NCBI GenBank assembly: GCA_044892525.1
Contig: CM097885.1
Span: forward strand, 122,822,001-122,886,000
Origin: Schmidtea polychroa
Lineage: Eukaryota
Reading direction: 5' to 3'
Length of the DNA stretch: 64,000 bases
Below the pieces are notes generated by a model. That model did not search any database. It worked only from the letters and a program-made list of their open reading frames with translations, and was not told where the DNA came from. A program made the translations under genes and the position numbers. Position 1 is the stretch's first letter. Every line of letters begins with the position of its first letter. Shown here piece by piece: positions 2,323-61,300 of the stretch.

Positions 2323-5300
2323 CAATAATATAACAAAAATATCTTTTTGAACACTTGGTATTTGTTAAATCGCTTCTTACAGTTCAAGTTTTCCTATATT
2401 TCTGCTCAAAATTTTAATGAAATTATTAATATTGTATAGTCATAATTTTGTTCAATAGATTGCTACATTTGAAGACGAGGCATTTAATTTTGCAACAGCA
2501 AGCAATGATAAAACCTTTTGCATTTTCGATATTCGAGAATCGAATAATATACCATCTTTAAAAATGAATTTACCGTGCTCTTTATCTGCCATAGCTATTC
2601 ATCCAATATATTCTTATAAAATTGCAATTGGTGGAAGTGATAGTTGTGTCAGAGTATTCGACAAAAGATATTTAAATAAAAGTTTTAACGGTAAGTTCGT
2701 TGTCTGTGATTACGAAATAAATATAATGCATAGACGTTGAAAAAACATTAAAGTATGTTACAGAAATTTGCAGGCCTCTTCAGTTTCCAATAGATAACAA
2801 GATATCGAATCCAAGTCCATTTCATAATTATGGAAAGCGATGTGTAAATAGCGTGAGCTTTGAACCACGCTTGGGAAATCATTTATTAGTTAACTACATG
2901 TATGATTCAATATATTTGTTTGATACAAGACAGCAAGAAAACAATCATCAACCTAATTTTCAAGTAATAAAAAAATTATGATATTATTATTATAGATCTA
3001 ACTAATAGCAATAACTATAAATATACAACAAAACATGTGTATAACACACACACAACACAACACAAGATTTTAAATTTCAAATCAAGCCACATTATAGAAT
3101 TAAATTTAAAGTGTCAACTCAATACCAATAATTTTACTAGATAAAATGTGTAAATTATACAAAAAAAACATGGATATAGCACACATAACACATTTAAAAT
3201 TTACAATCAAGTCCTCTTGCAGAGAATTCTACCTATACATGGTTATACTAAAAATGAGATCAAATCATCTATGAGATCAAAAATGCGTTTATATATATAT
3301 ATATAGTAGGATAGTGTCTGGTCTCGTCATGTTTGTGTTGGGGTGCCGACTAGGACAACACACATTTACTCTCTACCAGGGGATGAAGGTCAATTATTCT
3401 AAACAAAACTGATTTTGTCGACCGCTAGCCAGACTTTCGTTGATCCTTCTTACGCCATGACACCCATGACTTACATCATGTTGGTAATGTGACATGACGG
3501 CGGAATATGGTGAAGCAGGTGACCTTAAGACTACTCCTTCACCCTATTCCGGCTCACCCCTTTTCTGACGGCCGATAGAAGTTCTTACGTCTTGTCTCAC
3601 TTTGCGAAATCTGAGGTAATTCTATTTCCCTTTAGCTTGAGGATCTTCATCTTTAATTATTCACGAAAATTATTTTATTCAAAGAATTACTAACAAAATA
3701 AAACCAAAAAAAAAAATAAATTAAGAATAAAAAATTCGACGGAAAGGAAAAAACATGTTCATTTAGGAAAACATCACACCGTCCAGACAGATTGCTCTAT
3801 GCTTCACGAATTCATCTGTTGCAAGGTTGATGACGCTGACTGACCCCGGTGAAGTTGATGACGATAGAAGCGTGTCTACACAGCTTTTGTAGGATCTCCC
3901 GACTGTTGGATTTAGTTCTTGGGGATAATGATGTAGCGGGAAGACATTATCTTCTTCCGTGATAGGCACGGTCAATATGATTTTAGTGAGGGTCGCTTGC
4001 ACCTAGACTTTATGCAGTGTCTCCAACTGTTCTTTAATGAGCAGCCGCTGCGATCTGCTTTCTTCTATCAAACTGTCGCGGCAATGCTCTACTCGAACAA
4101 TTCTTTTTCGCGCTCCTTTTATTTGCGTGGGTGCGAACCACGCCCCTTCGAACCCATCTATCATTTTCTTTAGTACTCCTATCTGCCATTGTAAACCTGA
4201 CTTCAATTAAAAGCAACAAAATTTTACTCTAGGCAAATGAGACATGTGAAAACACTGAGACCTCCAAATTGACAAATTAGTAAACCAAACCAATAAATTC
4301 AAGAAGAGTCCTGGTAATTTCACTAGCTTGTCTTCTCTTTTTATATTGCTTTCGTAATTGAATTCTCTCTTTCTGTTTTTTAATTGATTTAACCCATTAC
4401 CTCCAGATTTATAATATTAATATTTGGGGATCGATGAATACAAAAATGATACAATACAAAATGATACAACCAAAAATGATCCAAAGCACATAAGTTAGTG
4501 TCCAGTTAGAGATGCAAAATATACTTATCACCATTTGGGGATTACATTAACTAGGTTTACCAGATTTTCACCAAGACAAACCGGGACGTCTGGCTACCCT
4601 AGGTAACTATATAAAAAATTAAAATAATAAACCAAGTATAAATATAAAAATCAATAAACTCACATATTTTTTAATAATTTAATAGCTTTAAATATTGTAA
4701 ATAAAAAAGTAACTTTCCCATGACGGCCACAGATTAAATTGAACAAAAACAAAACTTAACCATCTGTCATTCATAACAAAAACAAACTACCCAACAGGAA
4801 AAGTTTCATATTAAAACCCATCGAACAAGAAAGCTAATTCGAAAAATAGAAAAAGTATGATAAATAAACGAAACTTTGGAGGCAGTTGTCCTCCAAAATT
4901 TTTAATTTTGTTTGCAATATTGCAATGCAAAAAAACCGGGACAATTGAGCGTCCCGAAGACCTCTTTCGGGACAATGATCTCAAAACCGGGACAATCCCG
5001 GACGTCTGGCAACCCTACATTAACTATCATTTATATCCTTGTACTTAGTCTCGAAACATTTCATTGGAAGAGGTATAGAAAAAGAAACTCTCAAACTTGT
5101 AACTTTAGAGGAGTATTTTAATTTTTCATGCACAGATGATTTATTTATGTTACCAGTGATCACGCGTTTTTTTATTTGTATTACTGCAATTCTGATTTAT
5201 TTCCAAACATTTAATCTTTGTAATGGGAAAACTACAAATTTAGTTAAGTATTATAGTACTGGTTTTTAATGGTTTTAAACTATTTTGTTTACATAGTTAA

Positions 5301-24113: not shown

Positions 24114-24908
24114 TTAATTTACATCTCTTTTGTGTCTCACGTCGCAAAATCTTCTAGATTCATAAGTAGGTAACACATTTTTTATTTCGAAATATGCTTC
24201 TAATTCAAATGGACAACATCGAAGTTCAAAATCTTCAAAAAATTCTCGAATATCTTTCTTCAAATTTTCTATCGATTCACAGGAGTATTCTAATTTCTTT
24301 AAGTTTGCATTACAATCTTTTCGGAAAAAAAAATTTATTGGACGAAATATTGTATATATATATGGAAGAAATAAAACTGCTGCAATGTCATCCATATGAA
24401 CAAAGGCCTTTAAAAATAATAAAGTTCTAGAAATTGTTGTATATTTCAAAGTCCTTATGCATATTTTTAATGATGTGATAATGTTAGGTGTCCATTTTAA
24501 TAAATTATCTTTGTTTGAATTATTAATAATGCTTCTCAGTGCCGACAAAGCTAATCTTTGATAAAATTCATCCGAGTCGCTAATTCCTTCGACTAAACAA
24601 GGAAACAAATGTTTTAATGGAAGTGTATTAAGTGGTAATGCCCAACTTGCAACATCTCGATTAGGTAAAATTGTCATTCTAATTGGAATTTTTCCTTTAA
24701 TAAATAATTTTCTGAAATTTGAAGTAATATTACTTTCGCCTATCATTATCTTTGGCGGTTTTCCAACATCAAATTTACGAGAAAAGCTTATTGGTTTGAA
24801 TGCCAATTTTCGCTTTTCTGATTCACTGTCTTTTTTTAATTGATTCATAACACATTTCTGTTTATAAAGATATGGTAATAAATTAAAGGAAAATGAGGAT
24901 ACGGTCAT
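24114..24908 (-). CDS. PACRG: Divergent, intronless PACRG-family protein (axonemal inner junction)
   Basis: FRKLFIKGKIPI (cf. FRKFYERGDFPI), W...L..L...HLFPCLVEGI, ENL..DI.E..E.FE and C-terminal IKNVLPTYES (cf. IKYVVPTYES). Confidence 0.85.
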   Translation of the reverse strand: MTVSSFSFNLLPYLYKQKCVMNQLKKDSESEKRKLAFKPISFSRKFDVGKPPKIMIGESNITSNFRKLFIKGKIPIRMTILPNRDVASWALPLNTLPLKHLFPCLVEGISDSDEFYQRLALSALRSIINNSNKDNLLKWTPNIITSLKICIRTLKYTTISRTLLFLKAFVHMDDIAAVLFLPYIYTIFRPINFFFRKDCNANLKKLEYSCESIENLKKDIREFFEDFELRCCPFELEAYFEIKNVLPTYESRRFCDVRHKRDVN

Positions 24909-27405: not shown

Positions 27406-27794
27406 TATTCTAAAATTACTCGTCATTTTTCTGTGAACCTTAAGAAGAAGAATGTCAATGGGTGAATGTGTGTCAAAATGTGGATCGACCAATTAAATAT
27501 GAATTTCATAATGGTTTACTGAATTTCTTACTGAATGACATATTTATTTTCCAACGCTTCCAGTTGCTGAAAATGGTCATCTTATTGTGGAAGTTGTCCA
27601 CATCTGTATCGCATTTCATCCGACATAACCAACTCCGCAAGTCAATCAAATCTAACAAGTACCCTCCTCACACTTCTTGTATCGAATATTGGAATTACAC
27701 CGATGAATTATGCAAACTGTTCAACGTCAAAATTGTATGCAATCGTCAGAGAATATATTGCTGAAGATTCCGTAAGATTTTACTGTTAACCAGA

Positions 27795-30700
27795 TGTTGG
27801 CGTATGTGGGGGAAGAGAAAAATATGCACACATGATTATCATACATACCAAGTATCATCGTTCCGCTCAGACACTTCCCATACATACTCCAAATGATCAT
27901 ACACATATTCCCACGTATGAGCCCGTGGTGGTGTTCCACGTTGGTGCTGCTCACACGGGTTGGAAAAAGGTTAGCTGGTGAGCCCCTGCCTTAGGACTAC
28001 TCCTAACCCTTCGGGTTCCATGGCGCCTTAGAAGGTCTTACCCGTTTCTTCACACATAGTTCAGTCCGACCCTGGTCCAAAGGGACGACTTTCGGTCTTA
28101 GACCATACTTTCCCTACCGCTTGCTCATTCAACATTACCCACACAAAATCACGCACACTAATAATACAGTCAAAGAAAATCGAACAGTTGTATTTACAAT
28201 AAACATAAAAAGACAGTCCAGATTATTTGGATAATGATAAAACATTTAAGACCCTGCACAAGATAGATGTCAAATTCTTCAAGTTCCTGCATAGGGTAGG
28301 AGGATCGGGACCGACGAAGAAGTTCACTACGAGAATGCCTCTCCTTCCGCGAGCATCTCGTCAATATCGACAGGCAAATAATGATCAGCAACATATTTAA
28401 TCCCTTCTGCCGGAATTACTTTGAAAATCTCCTTGGCGGGAATTGAATGCGTGGCAGATATCTCGTTTATTTTGGATTGCGCCACTGACAAGGATGTTTC
28501 GAGGGCGGCCATTGCGTTTCTACGCTTTTGATTTTTCTCAGAGCGCGTCAGCCGCTTACGCTTTCGATGTGGCAATGCGGCTTCTGCTGGAGGCTGAGTG
28601 AGGTGCGACACGAGGATTGGAGCCAAGATAGGGTCCGATGGACCGCCAGCCATAGGCCGATAACCAGAAAGAACTGGGGCGGGAATTGGCGGCAATTGTA
28701 GGCCATGCCCATTACAACTAGTTGTTGATGAAGTTTCAACGGATTGGTGGTGTCCTGGGAACACGTTAGTCCCATCTGGTATTGGATATTCGCGAACTCG
28801 CTTCGCTATCTCGGATTCGGAATACACTTTGTGCAGTGCCTCTGACTGGGCTTTTATGGTTAGCCTCTGGCACCTACTCTCTTCCAGGAGACTGTCACGG
28901 CAGTGCTCCAAACGTAGGATTTTGCTCTTCTCCTCCTTCATTTGTGGTGGGGAGAACCACGTACCCTCATAGAGGTCAATGCGCTTCTTTAGAGCCCCGA
29001 TATATAGATGCAATTGGGCAATATCCGCGCTCTTGTCTGCGCAAGAGAAACACGGGTGAAGTTCTTTGGTCGGATTGGATTTTGAAGACATCTAGAAATC
29101 CAGAAGGTATATAGTAATCAATAAGTTTATTTACGCGAGATCTACAAATTCGAATATGAATGCAGTCACATCGCCAATCATTCCACTCAGCAATAACTAT
29201 AGCAATGGTCAACATTCAACATCATTTTTATTATTAACAGTTTTATATCCATGGCTTCCAAATTCGGGAGACGCGGATTTTATTTCAAACCTGAAATTAA
29301 CATTATTCATTTTATTTTTATATTTGCTAAATGTAGTGGATCTTAGCGACAAGGCAAAATTGTAGGCTATCCATGTCACAGGTAATGATGAGTATTCCTT
29401 AACGCATTCTACTTTATAAATAAGAGGCGTTTAGAAAACTCTAATATCCCTTAATTTTCATTATAAAATTATTTAAAATTCAATTTAAATCGGGGTATGA
29501 GGGTAGTCATGGAAATCCCTGACTCTATCTCCATGTCAACGTGTATTACTCTCCTGTGTGTGTATGCGGGAAGTTATTCTAATTAAGTAAGTAGTGATTG
29601 TAGTTCGTGCCTTGCTATAAATCGTTGTAGTAATTTCTACATCTGATTCTCCGCTATGATATTACCAATCAGGCACATATAGTCTGCGTGTGTGTATAAA
29701 TGATGTCATGACTTATATTCTGCTCTGGCACTGACAGGCTCGTAGGTGTGTATCGTTGGATTGATCAATGCTTAATATTATCGATGGAGTTTAGTCAAAA
29801 GAAAAATCTACAATATGAATTGCGATGTCGATATTCAAATTTTGGAAATTATCTCTACAATGATCGGCTAGACTCTAACTTCCTCATTATCACTCGATAG
29901 GCTATACTTACCACAACTAGTCGTCGACGAATGGAGTTATAAAGTGGTCGTTGCCTTCTAATCTATTAGCTGAGAGTTTTCAGACAACTTCCTTATCAAT
30001 CTGTCACCATCTCTTTAAAGGAGAGTCAAATCGCAAGATAAAGCTTACCAACTGGCCGTTATCGAGTTTTCGCCAGGACTAAAGTGAGTGTTTACATTAG
30101 TTATCGGGAAGTTTTCATGTTTCGTCTAGATTCGACAGTTATCAACGATAGAGGCCTGACAAGATGGATTGTAGCGTCTACTCTACTCAGATTAAAATCT
30201 AGATAGGAGATCTATCCGCTAACGTCTTAGCAATGTACATCCTAACCGAATCCAACTTCAGACAAAAATCTCGGATGGATCCCGTGGATTTCTACAGGTG
30301 AATACTGCTCACAATCATTGGGTCATTCGATTTGTCTTTTCGTCGATCATGGCGAAGTGCAACGAAGAATGAATGAAGAGAGATTTAGCTATCGCGTTGC
30401 AAATTCGTAAGTCGAAGATATGCCGGAATTTTCAGTCGATGGATTCTCTGCATCCCGTCTGGGTTCTCAACAATTCGTAGGAAATATTTTGTGAAAACGA
30501 CCGATCATCACTCGGTGGACAATCCTCTCCGTGCAAAATAGCTATCATGCCTCAGATGTCCTCACCCCTCCTGACCCACCTAAGCGCGGCAATCATCGCT
30601 GCCACCGCCCTTAGACCGCCAGGAGGGACGATTCTATCTCCTCAACCATTAATCATAAATGTTCATAAAAATTATTATAAAATTGAATGATATAATTAAA

Positions 30701-31830
30701 TAAATGGATACATTCGTTGTGAAATTATTTATTATATGGAAAATTACTTGTCTGGCGACCACGCCGTCTGAGTCTCGAATATGATGCCGTTCCATGATAA
30801 TCGCAATCGTTTAACCATTTCAATTTGTTGCAATACTGACTTTATCCAGATTCCCAATATCACTTCTAATAGCCATTCTCGTAGCTTCTTCTACAGATTT
30901 ATTTGAATTTTCCGCATCATATTAGATTCCCAGACGACATCGTCGCCAGACCATAGAGAGAGAGAGCAACATCTTTCGAAATCAAAAAATTTATTAGAAT
31001 AAAATATTTCATCTTGTCATTCATTTCATATCAAAATCATAGAAACATTCAAATCAATCACCATAACTTACTAAATAGTTCCTTCGAGAGTGTTGAAAAT
31101 TGTAAACGTTCGGATTATCAACTTGAATCGGTTTTCCTTTGGTTCAGTTAGACTCTTATAGTAGATTTCGTCGAATTGTCGTTAAAATAGTGCTTAATAT
31201 GCTGCTATCTAGTCCTGTAGAGTAGCGATTAAAAGTGGTAGTATAAAACAATAAAATTTTTACCTGTAGAGTAGCGATTAAAAGTGGTACTCTACAGATT
31301 TTCCATATTCCTTATATACTATTTTTCGTCCAATCAGGACGCGCCTTGTTTGTAATATTATTATTTATTATTATTTATGTGTTTTTATTATACTATGTTA
31401 GATTTTAATGCCTTTTCTTATTTCTATTATTATTTTATTTATTTTCCTATTTTCTATTATTTTTTCTTCTGTTTTTCTTGTGACTTTATTGTTATTTTAT
31501 AATAATAATTGTTATTATCATAATAATTAATTAGCCTATTTATTTGAGAATTTCTATTTTATTTTCTTAAATTTCTCGTTTATTTCTTACGTTTTATTAT
31601 TTTATGTTTTTCCTTTTCCTATCATGTGTCTTGGGTAATTTTACCTTATTTGTCGCCTTATGCATTCTATTGTTTTATTAGTTATCTTTATTTCTTTTAT
31701 ATTCTTATTTTCTTTTATTGTTATCTGATTTAGTTATTCCTATATTTCTCGTGATTTTATTGAAAATTTATTTTATCCTATTTATTCGTTCTCAACCAGA
31801 TTTTCAGCACTCTCGAAGTTTAGCCCAACA
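27795..31830 (-). mobile_element. 4,036-bp solo-LTR-like element carrying an ORF
   Basis: TGTTGG...CCAACA termini and a 4-bp TSD CAGA (27791-27794 and 31831-31834). A-rich 5' part on the minus strand, like the other LTRs here. No gag, pol or env motifs found. Confidence 0.75.
28327..29091 (-). CDS. Unknown 254-aa protein (CxxC, coiled coil, Pro-rich linker, basic NLS-like patch) inside the LTR-like element
   Basis: Intact ATG-to-stop ORF with raised GC. Homologous to decayed copies at 3763-4244 and 40566-40968. Confidence 0.8.
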   Translation of the reverse strand: MSSKSNPTKELHPCFSCADKSADIAQLHLYIGALKKRIDLYEGTWFSPPQMKEEKSKILRLEHCRDSLLEESRCQRLTIKAQSEALHKVYSESEIAKRVREYPIPDGTNVFPGHHQSVETSSTTSCNGHGLQLPPIPAPVLSGYRPMAGGPSDPILAPILVSHLTQPPAEAALPHRKRKRLTRSEKNQKRRNAMAALETSLSVAQSKINEISATHSIPAKEIFKVIPAEGIKYVADHYLPVDIDEMLAEGEAFS

Positions 31831-31964
31831 CAGATATGAAGGTGTTGCCAATTGCGGGTTATGATGACGAGACCATTTCTAGAAACTCTCCATGTTCCAA
31901 ATCTTTCATAAACTTAATGATTCGTGAGGCAGGAGTCTAAAAGCTTTCTTATGTTTATTACATT

Positions 31965-39590: not shown

Positions 39591-40565
39591 CATTTATCTA
39601 TGACTATGTTCAAATTTTAATGATTGATTGTAATATAACGATAATAAAAATTTTATAGTTGAGATAAAAATAATAAATTATTCGTTCCACATTTAGGTAT
39701 GAATATGTCATTATTGCTTATGATCATAGTTAGGTAGATCCAGGAAACCATTCTTTAATGACATCATTAATAGGAGGTGAAATTTGCTCTTCAAATTCCA
39801 GAATAGAAAGAGAGAATTAAAATGCAAAGTATTTTCCGAAAGATTAAACTACTCAAGGATATGAGGCCAGTACAGAACGATGGTATTTATGAAATGACGA
39901 CGTTTCCAGAAGGATTAAGTTCTTTCATTAATTTTCGTTAAATGAGATTAGAATAATTAAAACTCTCTGTTAACAATTATTTTCAAGTAAAGTTTTATTT
40001 AGAAATGTTTTTAAGGGTTTTTTATAATTAAGCGAGTGAAATATATTATTGATTTTGCAGTTCAAATTCTTTTCATTTTTTCAATTAATGTTTCATAAGC
40101 ATTCGATTAGACCATTTATTTTATTTTAATTGATTTAATGAAATATGCGAATTTAAAAACACAGGTCATGAACAAATCGATACCCGGGGGTAGTTGGATC
40201 TAGTCCTGGTGGCCAGGAGAAATGAGTTTAAATGAGGCCCGTAGGCAAAACTCGCAAGTTCGATTTTGGGCAAAATCTCCACTTGTGTCATATTTAATGA
40301 GATCGGAAATTACATATGCAAGAAAGTGGAAAATATATTATTGAGAAAGAGAAGGAGAAGGGCGGATGGATAGGTTCACGAATAACTAATAACGAAAATT
40401 GAACGAGATAATTCGATATAAACGTGCTTTGTGGTGTTAAGGAGATAGTGCTTAAAATATATAAATTCATTAAATTATCAAGTAAATATCGTATATAAGG
40501 TAACAGAAATTTTCTTCATGGCTATTATAAATTACACTAGTATTGTCATGCATATTGTATGCCAA

Positions 40566-40968
40566 ATATTTAAATAAAAATAAATTACTATGGATCCAAT
40601 GTAGAAGTTCTTAGGGATAAAACTTTTTAAAGAAATGTATGCAAATGGAGGGTACCTGGTCCAGAATTGAATAGGTAAGGAAACTCCATCAAAAGATCGA
40701 AGGTTTAGAAAAACTCGAGAGGAAGACCAAAGGACTATCAAAGATTTAAAGATAACAATCCGGGAGCAGAAACAGAAAATCCTGAAACTTCGCACAGAGA
40801 CCAATATCGATGCGGGAGTTGGATGAGTGCCGAAGTACTCCGAGAAAGAGCTATTTCCAGCTATATCAGCTCTGATCTTCAGAATCTTGAGGACGATTCC
40901 AGTACCAAAGAAATCATGTAAGTTCCAACAGAAAAAAATTCGACCCAGCGACATGTCGGTTCATTAGC
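40566..40968 (+). pseudogene. Third, more distant decayed copy of the unknown LTR-borne ORF
   Basis: LKKCMQMEGTW (cf. LKKRIDLYEGTW). Gap-free LEKTR...KITIREQ..ILKL against LEHCR...RLTIKAQ..LHKV after a frameshift, then YSEKE...IPVP (cf. YSESE...YPIP). Confidence 0.6.
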
Positions 40969-55300: not shown

Positions 55301-58300
55301 TTCGATCATGAAACTTCTGTCATGCAACTTCTTTATTATTTTACTTGGACTCTCAAATCTATCTTCATTTTTCTTTGCCATATGTTTTTTTTTACCAAAA
55401 CAACATTCCCGATATTGAAAATTTGATTTGGTCTTAATTTGAAAAATAATTCATCCTTATTTCCTGTTATTCGGTAATCTTTCTGATTTACGCTTTTTCA
55501 TTAATAATTGTAGTTCGTATGGTTCGTCATTTGAATCTTTTCCCCAAAACAAAATTTTCCGGGACTTAATTGAGTAGATTTCTGAATTGTCGCAATCGAC
55601 ATAATGTAAACTTCAGGAAGTATCTCGACCCAGTCTTTACCCATTCTTTTTATTAATCAAATCTGGATCGCATTTCTAATAGTTCTAAATTGACGTTCAA
55701 TTTGCCCATTAGTACGGATTTCAATATACTAGATTAATCCCATTTTTCTCTGCAAATGTATTTAATAAAACTGACTCAAATGCTTTTTCTCTATCGTGAT
55801 GAATACTCTTTGGAGCACCAAATTTCAAAATTGTTGCAACTGTCTTCTTATTTTGCTCAGAAACTACGCACAAAGAAATATATCTACTAAATTGGTCTTT
55901 AATTGCCAAAATATTCTTCTTTCCACTCCTAGCTGGGTCACTTATGTCATTAATTTCTATAAATTTTGTTTCTTTCTCGATTAGTATCTCTTTATTGATA
56001 TTTACTATTTTTTCTTTTCGTGGGTTCAATAAGAGTTTAATATTAAATTGATCTAACATATTAATACCTCCTATTACACTTGGTGAAATTTCATTTGCAT
56101 TAAATAAATCAACCTTATTTTCGTGATTTAAAATTTTTATTTTTAATGAAACCGTTCTTAATATTTCCAAGGGGTCATTTGCACATTTTACCAATAAATA
56201 AGTGTTTTCAACTTTTACATTTTTGAGCGCGTCTAGCACATCTTTACTGGTAACACTTATTCTAGCTCCTGTATCCAAAAGCTGATTAAATTTCTTATTA
56301 TTAATCGAGATATTAATACTGGACCTACTCATCATTTTGTCGTATTTTATTACCCTATCATAACCATTATTTAAAGTGCTTACCTTATTATCAATACTTA
56401 TACCACAATCATCATACTAAATATTGCCAAAAAATTCGATTTCATGCAAACAATCACTTCCTCCTGTGTTAAAACGTTGGCATTTGGGTATTCGCTGTTG
56501 AACATCAGATTCTCGTCATCTCCTAGGTCTTTTGCATAACAATTTTGTTTCTAAATGATGGGAAATTGTAATGTCACTGGAATCTGATTATTCTGCGGAA
56601 TAAAATTAAGGTGAAAATGAATAAAAGTGATAAATCACGTAATATTGAAAACCAGCATGGATGATTTAATTACAAATATTATTCTAATTACAAAATCTAC
56701 AAATGTTGTTAATTCTAAAATATATTTAAACAAATAACCGATATCCTAGATCAGCGCAAAATTATTTAAGATAAATTAAAATTAGTTTTTAATTACTAGA
56801 TTTTATTACCAAATAAATATTTTAGACCGTTATAGTTGGTTAGTCTAGTTTTAAAACAGAAATCTAACTTCCTTTCATTTGAATGTATAAATAATGCATT
56901 AAAAGTTGTAAATTTATTAATAAGTTGACACTCCTAAATTTTTATTATTTTGTTTTATTAATCAATTTCCAAAGTCCTTAAACTTGTATCTTGTTTTGAT
57001 TATTTTAAAAGTTGATTTTAAGTCAGTAATGTTTATAATTCAAATATAATTAAAGAAATAATTATTTTATACAAACAATACGTTGATTACAGTTGCTATA
57101 TAATACCTTTTTATTGTTTAGGGCAGAGCCCGTGCACAGGATTCCCAATATATTATTTTTACTCACGAAACAGAGAAAACAGTAGCTCAAATACAAAAAT
57201 TTAACATGATAAATGAAGTTAGAAATAATTTCAAGTACAATTGTTTTCATCTATAGTTTGAAATACTTTTAGGAAATGAATAAAATTTTAAAATCCAGAG
57301 TTATTGAAGATGAATTAACGAAAGATGACGGTGAAAGAAATGTTATCCCATCTGAAGATGAAAAATTTGATTATGTTCCGTATGGTGAAGATGGACCTAG
57401 AATTACTCTTAATAGCGCATCTGGTGTTTTAAATAGATATATTGGAAAACTTAGATGTAATAGTATAAGTGAACCAAAAATCATATATACTTTTCGTGGA
57501 GATGAGTCGAATTTTTATCGCGCTTTTCTTCTTTTACCAATGCCTGCCCCTTATTTAGAAGAAATAGAAGGTACACCATGTTCCAATAAAAGAAGAGCCA
57601 AGCAATTCGTGAATTTAGAAGCATGCAAAATATTGCATAAATATGGTTATTTAATTTTTTATACTTATGTTATACTTAAGTTACAATTCTAGATGAACTT
57701 GACTCGAGTTTATTACCATATAATAGATCTGATAACAGTTTAGTTAGTCAAGAAAGTAATGACAATGAAATCAACCAATATGAGAAATATGTAAGATATG
57801 CTTTTTACTTTATCTTTGTTAGACGCAATTAAATTCAAGTCTTCTTCAAGCATTTATTTTTATAACAACTTCAAAATTGTGCCGTTTACTAGAGTATTTA
57901 AACACCGAGGCGTGATAATTATTAATATTAATGTAATTACCGGTCATACATTTAATTGATTTAATTTAATATAATTTAATATAATATGATATAATTTAAT
58001 ATAGAATTTAAATATAAAAATTTAACAGAAATAATTATTTCTACTAACTGATCTCACTTCTACCATAATAATTTTATATAGAGATTTATTAACACCTTAC
58101 AATCTTTTTAATGAAAAAATTATCATATTTTTATAATCCATTTAATGTTTGAAATACCATTTCTCATTATTGGTTTGCCTTGGAAATTTAATAATGTAAA
58201 ATTAATTTGATTATGTAAAATAAATTGAAACTGGAAATTTTAAAAAAGTAAAAAAGTAAAAATTTATATTTTTCAATGGGAAAAGTGATAACTGGCGGCC

Positions 58301-61300
58301 AACTTAAAGTTAAGGATGAATAAAATCATTTTGACAAAAAAACAAACAAATTAATTAATTAATTACTGTCATTTATTATTCTAGGAAAATCCCAGATTTC
58401 GTAAGTTTCTTCAACTTTTCTAATAGATTTAAAATCACTCAGAACCATTTGACATTTCACTATTGTCATTATTATATATTGCAGAATCGTGTAATTTGAT
58501 TCGAATTACTCCTGTTATACTTTATCTTGAAATCTGATTTTTTGATCTATCTAACCTTGCGGCATCTGATTCTTAGCCTCTCCGTCCTTATCCGTTGGAT
58601 TTCGGTAAGCTTCATTGTCGCACTCAGCTCGAGACGGAATTAACTCTTATAACTTCTGTGAAAACTTTCAGTCTCTATCGGATTTTATCCTGCTGATTTT
58701 TACCCATCAGACTGATCATCATACTGTTGGCAGCATTCGTTCCTAGCATACAATTTCATGGACTCAGCAAAAGAACAATGCAAAAACACTGCAAGCAAAT
58801 AATAATCATAGTACAACAATATTATTCATGACCCACTGGCCAAAGATAGAACGTTAGGATGACTTCTCTCGCTTCCTTGTCGTAGACGTCCATCTTATTA
58901 GACGGAAACCCAGTTGTCGCTGACCCATCTGGCCAAATCGCCGTGCATGACCGATGTGTCTCTTCGCTTGACGTTTCGTTTTACAGGTGGAGCAACTCAA
59001 CATCGGTACTCGCCAAGGTATCATCTCTGCTTCGATACGATGTGCTGAATACGGTGTTTATTGTGATCTTTTATTATTGTTTATGATCTGTTTATTATTG
59101 TTATTTTAAGAATATTTTAAAAACGTTATTTTCTCTTCATTTTAGAAATAATTAAATAATAAATAATAAATTGAAAGTATGTACAAGTTTTCTGTATAAC
59201 TTTATAACATTTGATGCGTTAAGAAATTTAACATGAAAAATATGATATTTACTTGAATAATGAGTTATTTATCTGTAAGTTGAAATACATTAGTGTAAAA
59301 ATAAATAAATTTGGTAGATGTTTTATTTATAGTACTGTAATTTTTCATTTATCCTGAATACTCAACGAAATGCTCCTAGAATTAGTTAAAGGATTGTAAT
59401 GGAACAATTAAATTGAGCTATTTATGGATGTAGTAGAATCTCAGTTTTTAGTCATTTTTTAAAATGAATATTTTTAGACTGCAATAAAGCTGAGTACAGA
59501 TTTCCAAAGATTATCTATTCCTCCAAATGAATTATATTTATATTCAATAAAATATACTCCTTGTGTGTTTTTAAAACTTGGAATCAGTGATATATCTATG
59601 TTTGATGTTTCTACATATCTTGGAATATTGTTACAGAAACCTATTCATAAAGTTATATTTTATATTAATTTTATATAACTCGCTATTATAGAATGAAGAT
59701 TTTATGAAATTTCCTATTTTTCTTGTCGGTGGCATGAGTTCTGTTGAAATTAAATTTGAGTACAACTTACCAATAGATTCTATAAATTATGCATTGCTTT
59801 TAAATTGTCATGAAACTTTGTTTAAAATATATTCAGAACGGATTAGAAAATTTGCTAAGAACATATTTTTTGATCCTTCCAATGCAAAAAGTTCAATTAT
59901 TGTTACTATATTAAAAGGTTTTTAACTTGAATTTCTAACTTAAATTTATATTTCTTAGATAATAAAATTTATTTTAATAAAATTAAAGAAATCCTAGAAA
60001 ATCCAATTGTAGTTAACTTGATTAAAAATGATCCAAGTTCTTGGATCGGTTCAGTGATTAGACCTAATTATATTAATAATGAATTTGGTGCATTTGTGAT
60101 ATCAAAAGTATGCTATAATATGAATGCTGGTTCAATTTTGAAAAATAAAATGACTCATGAAGAATTTTTAAATAAAAAATATAATATAATTTTAACCCCA
60201 AATGAAAAGTTATTACCACTTATCAAAGTTATCAGGTTAACTACTATTCAAAGTTGTGTTAACAAGGAAAAGAGATTTTTAAGAAATAATAGGAAACTTC
60301 AAAAAATCAATGAAAGTGAATGTTATTTCGTTCCTTCAATAGTTGAATGTATTTCACTGTCCTCAAGTTTATGGACACAGCTCTGTATATTTCCTACAAT
60401 TCATCATCGGATGAATCAAATACTCTCCATTGAAGAGTTTGCACATGATTTAGAATTTATGAATTTAATAGAAAAACCAGATTGCTTTGAAATTAACCTT
60501 GATGAATGTTACAATATAGAAAATATTGAATCATCTACATATGATGGAAATGTTTTAACATTTATCAATAACGTTTTCCCGTGTTTTAGGGCCAAAACTT
60601 GTAATGATCGAACAAATTTGGAACAATTTGAAATATTAGGAGATAGTTTCTTAAAATTTATCACTTCAAAATATCTTTTTCATTTTTCTGATGCTTCTGA
60701 TAATGAAGGCAAATTGACTCAGAAACGTTCTCAGTTAATATCTAATAAAAATTTGTTTCATTTAGCAATTAAAAGGGGGTTGGACAAATATTTTTGTTAC
60801 ACAAATTTTAATCCAAAGTATAATTACTTACCTCCTAACTTTATTGTTAAAAATTCTGATGAATCTGTTGAAGTTAGTAATAGTAGAGAGTTTGTCTTAA
60901 TTAAAAACAAAAATCTAGCTGATTGCTGTGAAGCTATTATTGGATCAATACTTACTAATTACGGAATCGATTTCTCAATTCAATATCTTCTTTGGTTAAA
61001 ATTACCATTATTACCTGATAATGAATCAAATATCAACATTGAAATCTCTCAAACATTGGCATTCCAAAATATTATAATGGACAGTGATATTCCACAGTCT
61101 ATCAAAGATTTAGAAACAATTCTTAATTATCAATTTAAAAACAGAGCCTATCTAATTCAAGCCATTACTCATCCATCATCAATTGCAAACAGGAAGTTTT
61201 CCTGTTATCAAAGGTGGTTAATTTAATTTATCCACTAATTTGTCCATAAATTATTTTGTAGGTTGGAGTTTCTTGGTGATTCAGTTATTGACTTTTTGAT

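Follow-up and report, generated by a model that had tools for sequence, protein, structure and literature searches.

What kind of gene is the open reading frame (ORF) on the reverse strand of this 64,000-nucleotide stretch of Schmidtea polychroa DNA (hereafter the window), and what may its product do? The original prediction took it for one of three diverged members of an unrecognised protein family, kept by purifying selection and suggestive of a nuclear oligomerising or RNA-binding factor.

Three LTR relics in one window

The ORF is real and intact, running from ATG to TAG at 28327-29091 on the reverse strand and encoding 254 amino acids, in a patch of 48% GC compared with about 28% for the window. 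It is contained in a solo LTR of 4,036 bp (27795-31830, reverse strand) from subfamily A of a Burro-type giant gypsy element, which has the ends TGTTGG...CCAACA and is flanked by a 4-bp target duplication, CAGA, at 27791-27794 and 31831-31834. Its termini match LTRs from full elements (L031-L038), the ORF reads in the same direction as the polyprotein of the element, and 532 nt separate its stop from the LTR 3' end. The sequence of the solo LTR is mosaic, being 76-97% like L141 as far as residue ~45 of the ORF, 84-97% like L039 and L043 over residues 48-195, and 92-100% like L042 in the last 500 nt. The 254-codon frame is unbroken across these joins (window 27795-30000), which would have arisen through template switching or gene conversion. 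As the LTR is composed of known variants and the frame has been kept, the distance of this ORF from other copies is no sign of domestication.

Two further copies lie in the window. One, at 3336-4206 on the reverse strand, is the 3' remnant of a subfamily-B LTR with its end at 3336; its broken ORF (~3766-4206; E 1e-27 against the window ORF) has lost the start codon and contains an in-frame stop at ~4003-4005. The predicted match of 39 out of 63 core residues to this copy is exact, with a pN of 0.22 versus a pS of 0.89. The proposed third copy also exists, at 40524-40968 on the forward strand, but it is a distant, old and broken member of subfamily D, interrupted by stops and frameshifts, for which no LTR ends were found and to which the ORF alone gives no real match (tblastn E 5.1). 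Its link to the family comes through profile A2, matched by the open stretch 40671-40823 with an E of 1.3e-5, a score that is partly circular because A2 includes one relative found with the third copy. That relative, L120, independently matches profile A1, built without L120, with an E of 1.4e-9 (local ORFs), and is among the 107 places in this genome retrieved with a fragment of the third copy as query. The three copies are LTR relics from three different subfamilies.

The window also contains exons of a Dicer-like gene with a dimerisation domain and RNase III (57276-61226, forward strand) and the remains of a further LTR element, with fragments of protease and integrase (55721-56335, reverse strand). 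A single-exon ORF with a Parkin co-regulated (ParcG) domain (E 2.5e-24) lies at 24114-24908, about 2.9 kb downstream of the solo LTR and on the same, reverse strand; splicing towards it from a conserved donor-like site at ~28041 is speculation.

Host element, relatives and constraint on the reading frame

Searching the organism's own genome (781 Mb) with the ORF returned 6,827 candidates, of which 149 were scored. The family, proposed to have three members, thus numbers at least 149 scored places in this genome. It is a family of retroelement LTR genes rather than of host genes. By a hand tabulation biased to the best copies, 136 of the 149 places lack a stop. There are 28 same-strand pairs less than 45 kb apart among them and no opposite-strand pairs; in 23 of the 28 the spacing is 26.1-26.7 kb. 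Two such pairs mark the two LTRs, identical at 99.8-99.9%, of elements that span about 30.6 kb and carry 4-bp target duplications. The LTRs of the ~30.6-kb element in L031-L034 measure about 4.17 kb, and relatives of the ORF occupy both LTRs of env-bearing gypsy elements of 25-31 kb. Family ORFs also recur three to four times at fixed spacing at C1:39424582-39472455, C4:69859503-69912372 and C158:15062-56331 (15.8, 26.3 and 20.5 kb), which suggests tandem element arrays sharing LTRs.

Pfam places Gag and CCHC knuckles in the internal region, together with a viral fusion glycoprotein domain, protease, RT, RNase H, integrase and ankyrin repeats, to which subfamily A adds a RING-TRAF-MATH ORF and a RING ORF, both separate from the polyprotein. 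The polyprotein is stop-free for 3,333 codons in L033 and carries on for 1,330 in L032, with the Pfam domains ordered as in the published description of Burro. This description, rather than reference sequences, is what the host element was compared with, and it matches the Burro/GYPSM1 type in length, domain order and cargo: both are about 30 kb long and present in very many copies, with a very long polyprotein, an env-like fusion domain ahead of PR-RT-RH-IN, Gag with CCHC knuckles, and ankyrin, MATH/TRAF and RING cargo. In subfamily C the MATH and fusion domains share a frame, with MATH first, as has been described for Burro1, whereas in the window's subfamily RING-TRAF-MATH forms an ORF of its own. 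The element itself is already known, Burro/GYPSM1 being giant gypsy-like LTR retrotransposons of planarians (Jurka 2007; Grohme et al. 2018; both via PMC6431247), but section 7 of PMC6431247 names no ORF inside the LTR. BIR and BCL2-like motifs have been reported in Burro elements in the same paper (PMC6431247); Pfam detects no BIR, BCL2-like, SUMO-like or dUTPase-like motif here at E 0.01 or 0.001, although the published calls were made with HHpred.

An 18-mer resembling a primer-binding site, the same in all three element types (L034:3150-3188, L126:5650-5690 and L130:6140-6180, from three diverged subfamilies), lies several bases past the 5' LTR; it is presumably of the tRNA-Pro type. There are no tRNA genes within the 64-kb window. 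The sequence ahead of the 3' LTR is conserved but is no plain polypurine tract. In subfamily-A elements, a 165-codon ORF with a C-terminal RING finger (L034:2236-2730, reverse strand) lies between the primer site and gag.

An identity as Gag was considered for the ORF and rejected: Pfam finds no capsid, retrotrans_gag or zinc knuckle in it, it precedes the primer-binding site, and the element's own Gag opens the polyprotein and does not match the family profile. The same profile matched no internal ORF among 1,055 open stretches from 16 loci, the two extra matches being outside the element. A confident match to Gag or another annotated transposon domain would have contradicted the original prediction; the ORF is not Gag and has no domain match, but it is nonetheless a transposable-element gene. 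Almost certainly, the LTR of Burro-type elements carries it as an accessory gene.

Five subfamilies, A to E, were distinguished in this genome. Subfamily A (254 aa) includes the window ORF; B, represented by the window's second copy, has many broken members; C, with 6,406 candidates, encodes 152 aa and is present in full elements; D is old and includes the third copy; and E encodes about 250 aa. The full elements read for E and C, one apiece, carry both fusion and RT domains, and in the LTRs of A, E and C alike the ORF lies 400-562 nt short of the 3' end. More distant relatives were sought in protein databases, where an exhaustive profile search of 1.84 billion sequences recovered 17 (P0001-P0017; best E 4e-15). 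A word-indexed search of 5.8 billion proteins found none, with either a single protein or an alignment as query (near and longer lengths), which reflects a limit of sensitivity given that the exhaustive search recovered 17. Twelve of the 17 are gene models that fuse the family ORF to an unrelated domain, the partners including a transporter, a ribosomal protein, subtilase, actin, a phosphatase and hAT. Two of the fused relatives were tested: their host parts match this genome at 89-90% identity and their family parts at 41% or less, implying that these distant relatives probably come from another planarian. Among viral and metagenome contigs, no relative was confirmed in 63 and 82 pattern matches.

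The ORF is kept under purifying selection, as had been proposed. Across 26 distinct subfamily-A sequences, taken from 30 loci of which four have stops, the mean dN/dS over 325 non-independent pairs is 0.11, well away from the value near 1 expected had the reading frame not been constrained. By region, the ratio is 0.03 for residues 13-103, 0.25 for the linker, 0.05 for the basic region and 0.16 for the C-terminus, and the window ORF gives 0.12-0.16 against each of the 25 other copies. The pN/pS ratio is 0.26-0.27 in the closest subfamily-A pairs and 0.15 in distant ones. The five other frames average 4.5-11 stops versus 0.2 in the ORF frame, and four of them have ratios of the pN/pS type of 1.4-2.3; the antisense frame that shares third positions has a ratio of 0.32, yet contains 4.5 stops on average.

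Predicted protein and signals in the LTR

The architecture first described for the protein, comprising CxxC, EGTW, helical segments, a proline-rich linker (17% P) and a basic patch (net +9), is present in the window ORF. CxxC does not extend to the family, being limited to subfamilies A, B and E and absent from C. All intact subfamilies and the distant relatives keep an Arg/Lys-rich helix and a coiled coil that a GTW..P motif interrupts. The AlphaFold2 monomer is weak overall (mean pLDDT 61, pTM 0.33), with helices at residues 15-41, 49-99, 183-214 (the basic helix) and 243-250 and a disordered linker. Residues 8-115, by contrast with controls, were modelled as a parallel, in-register homodimer with an ipSAE of 0.61 and a pLDDT of 81, the best of three controls scoring 0.00 and the homodimer runs agreeing in at least 94% of contacts. 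The ipSAE mark used is reached by 21 of 30 solved homodimers and none of 23 monomers (17 of 29 and none of 30 among eukaryotes). The model supports a parallel coiled-coil homodimer over residues 13-93, and the suggestion of an oligomerising factor is borne out to the extent that self-association is predicted.

Some 70 residues separate the basic helix from the main coiled coil, which is unlike the arrangement in bZIP proteins. The hint of RNA binding finds some backing in that the basic segment is an arginine-rich motif in some distant relatives (9-10 Arg in 14 residues), but most rows from this genome have 4-6 and the window helix has 5. Residues 140-171 of P0006 align with positions 25-53 of Pfam REV (E 0.0013, 19.1 bits, under the cut-off of 22), a score probably driven by arginine content. 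Acidic-aromatic tails of net charge -4 to -8 are found in 17 of 28 rows of A2 (6/6 from A, 7/7 from E and four from B) and tails of this type also occur in several distant relatives; an acidic tail is absent in subfamily C and P0002. A conserved leucine-rich NES was not found, the consensus being absent in five of six subfamily-A rows and in five 152-aa subfamily-C rows. P0008 and P0011 have a class-1a NES consensus at the same place, against a background in which shuffled tails of at least 55 residues often match (0.25-0.9). A PPxY motif is present in P0004, P0008 and P0011 and in none of the tested rows of this genome. A PxQxT-like motif at residues 105-110, which we take to be TRAF-binding, was rejected because other subfamilies do not keep it.

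As had been stated from the sequence, the product falls in no annotated domain family. Pfam returned no family for the window ORF at E up to 1 and, for 28 family members, scattered coiled-coil-type matches only, at E 0.005 or worse; the best E among PDB sequences was 0.48. Foldseek found nothing at E 0.001 in PDB and BFVD, where the matches were generic coiled coils, and the best ESM Atlas scores, 0.84 and 0.89, belong to unnamed clusters. Delta antigen (ESM Atlas 0.79) was dropped as a candidate at chance level.

The LTR also contains several gene-like signals. On the reverse strand, an inverted CCAAT box (31337-31330) and a TATA-like box (31318-31312) form a putative promoter at 31312-31337 that is aligned in all five subfamily-A LTRs compared; the same order recurs in both subfamily-E LTRs, the motifs being 330-520 nt into the A and E LTRs, and was not found in two subfamily-C LTRs. 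About 50 nt past the TATA-like box, a donor-like site AG|GTAAA (31258-31270), also in 5/5 aligned A LTRs, is a candidate end for a leader exon. A second donor-like site, GGG|GTGAGG at ~30565, falls in a GC-rich island (30545-30630) that is conserved in 5/5 aligned LTRs although the sequence around it is only 30-50% alike; apart from this island, LTR variants are only about 25-55% alike between the promoter and donor signals and the ORF. A putative acceptor, YAG at 29092-29094, abuts the ATG. In 30 of 30 copies from subfamily A the ATG directly follows TAG, with diverging sequence farther upstream, and an acceptor-like AG is found 0-11 nt ahead of the ATG in 26 of 26 rows from five subfamilies, versus 2223 of 17735 background ATGs (12.5%). 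The distance from acceptor to ATG varies in phase (0-11 nt), which implies that the leader exon would be non-coding.

Beyond the ORF, AATACA at 28189-28194, 135 nt past the last codon and followed by T/GT-rich sequence, is a candidate polyadenylation signal. Hexamers of this type, mostly AATACA or AATATA, occur 102-140 nt past the stop in 26/26 subfamily-A copies versus 136/416 background windows, and canonical AATAAA 95-138 nt past it in 7/7 subfamily-E copies versus 13/119, counts that come from related and so non-independent copies. Another AATAAA, aligned at LTR position ~830 in all five subfamily-A LTRs, could be the real signal instead, in which case the ORF would lie within a very long (3-kb) U5. 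The 3' end of the LTR (27795-28085) is a conserved block with 78-92% identity to four other LTRs and predicted stem-loops (RNAalifold consensus -70.7 kcal/mol); 3 of its 72 pairs have a compensatory change, and it has no match in Rfam.

Three patterns, each with a candidate donor joined directly to the ORF, were sought as a sign of intron-less DNA copies; none had a match, a result that does not imply absence of splicing. A look-up of sequences containing the window LTR listed no RNA. Contigs from four runs, guessed to be of RNA, contain no joint at the predicted acceptor over L034:1-6900; these contigs, which are blind to starts, ends and strand, are uninformative here, and leave uncovered about 450 nt at the 5' end of the LTR, where the promoter and the first donor-like site are. 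Taken together, the promoter-like, donor-like, acceptor-like and polyadenylation-like signals imply that each LTR likely holds a whole spliced gene, and it is probable from them that a spliced transcript starts and ends within one LTR.

Possible functions of the LTR gene

Some role in regulating the element's own expression seems rather likely, and the best guess at a mechanism, a tentative one, is that of a transactivator. As the sequence signals suggest, the LTR promoter would give rise to a leader exon, an intron of up to ~2.2 kb and an acceptor just before the ATG, and the mRNA would end at a polyadenylation site ~150 nt past the stop, within the same LTR. The protein would dimerise via the predicted coiled coil and, by analogy with foamy-virus Tas and lentiviral Tat, may enter the nucleus, bind the element's nucleic acid through the Arg/Lys-rich helix and raise the element's own transcription through the acidic tail. 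Acidic-aromatic tails are typical of activation domains. Against this mechanism, subfamily C, with 152 aa and in full elements, and P0002 are without the acidic tail, and the up to 10 Arg in 14 residues and weak REV score point to RNA binding. No sequence or fold similarity of the product to Tas, Tat or Tax was found in Pfam, PDB sequences or Foldseek searches of PDB and BFVD. Foamy-virus Tas (Bel1), which the product may resemble in mode of action, is a multimerising, nuclear accessory protein of about 300 aa with a C-terminal activation domain (PMC9241813); on the side of the ORF family, dimerisation is predicted and the acidic-aromatic tail of A, B and E is a candidate activation domain. 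Tas is driven by an internal promoter close to the end of env (PMC9241813), whereas the present gene lies entirely within the LTR.

Close behind in probability is a Rev/Rex/Rec-like RNA regulator made from a short spliced LTR mRNA, a reading we consider somewhat doubtful, in which the arginine-rich helix would bind structured Burro RNA, the coiled coil would oligomerise, and intron-containing full-length RNA would escape splicing or leave the nucleus. Rev, Rex and Rec have oligomerising helices and an arginine-rich motif and are made from spliced mRNA. The traits common to every intact subfamily, the coiled coil and the basic helix rather than the tail, are of this kind, as are the arginine-rich distant relatives with the sub-threshold REV score of P0006, and if the LTR does hold an intron then genomic RNA would have to keep it, providing a need for such a regulator. 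The foldable block at the LTR 3' end and the NES consensus shared by P0008 and P0011 are also as expected, but the block is nearly without covariation, the NES consensus is not conserved and has a high shuffle background, and arginine content is the probable source of the REV score, while the window helix has only 5 Arg in 14. Unlike Rev, Rex and Rec, the ORF family combines this lack of a conserved NES with a long parallel coiled coil and an acidic-aromatic tail.

Less probable again is an unlikely role as a host-modulating or anti-silencing protein, the dimer binding a host factor (in the PIWI pathway, chromatin or innate signalling) via the acidic-aromatic tail. The TRAF-like RING/MATH and ankyrin cargo of the same elements and the reported BIR and BCL2-like motifs would fit this role; the core dN/dS of 0.03, with no arms-race divergence seen, and the lack of similarity to a known suppressor or signalling domain in Pfam and Foldseek argue against it, and none of the observations points to silencing suppression in particular. 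MMTV Sag is a T-cell superantigen encoded in U3, upstream of the LTR promoter, whereas the Burro-type ORF is ~2.2 kb downstream of the putative one. Sag is nevertheless a precedent for such a protein, as its ORF likewise lies inside a retroviral LTR (PMC2119085, in part), and BURRO1 is under repression by SMEDWI-2, according to the passage on it in PMC8532177. A structural role, or an accessory one in the particle, for instance as a nucleic-acid chaperone or an adaptor for budding, is improbable: a coiled coil with a basic helix would suit RNA packaging, and the PPxY of three distant relatives and the env-like fusion domain of the element would suit budding or particles, but no tested row of this genome has PPxY and the element already has a Gag with zinc knuckles. 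Structural proteins are, moreover, normally part of the polyprotein. Least probable by far, and largely refuted, is a host gene family or domesticated single copy. It would account for the intactness of the window copy within a solo LTR and for its identity of no more than 88% to the best-scoring copies, as well as for the fusions to host domains in most database relatives; however, the copies have a fixed position in the LTRs of full elements and of solo LTRs with target duplications, the mosaic of known variants explains the distance, and the fused partners are all different, as would be expected of gene-model artefacts.

A gene inside the Burro LTR is not described in the literature searched, including section 7 of PMC6431247 and parts of PMC8532177 and PMC11410931; Repbase, figures, supplements and Grohme et al. 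(2018) were beyond reach, and may already show the ORF. Known extra ORFs of long-LTR gypsy elements, ORF0 of Retrosat2, RIRE3 and RIRE8 and those of Ogre, are similarly lineage-restricted and constrained, but are located upstream of gag-pol or in the internal region, and no sequence relation to them was found (PMC3485330 and PMC6431247, each in part). It is conceivable, though we put it forward with reserve, that Burro LTRs each carry a complete intron-containing gene encoding a dimeric Tas/Tat- or Rev-like trans-regulator with no homologue known outside planarians.

Solo LTRs are normally treated as non-coding relics, yet the one in this window, of a type with very many copies in the genome, keeps an intact and strongly selected ORF with what appear to be its own promoter, intron and polyadenylation signal. 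For annotation, related ORFs appear to be spliced into unrelated host gene models in public databases. If the trans-regulator reading is true, a retroviral-style regulator would be scattered in thousands of solo LTRs, each a copy that is potentially expressed, and Burro would represent a gypsy-lineage element of invertebrates built like a complex retrovirus. Should the protein regulate Burro transcription or RNA export, it would offer a handle on how these PIWI-repressed giant elements are switched on in planarian tissues.
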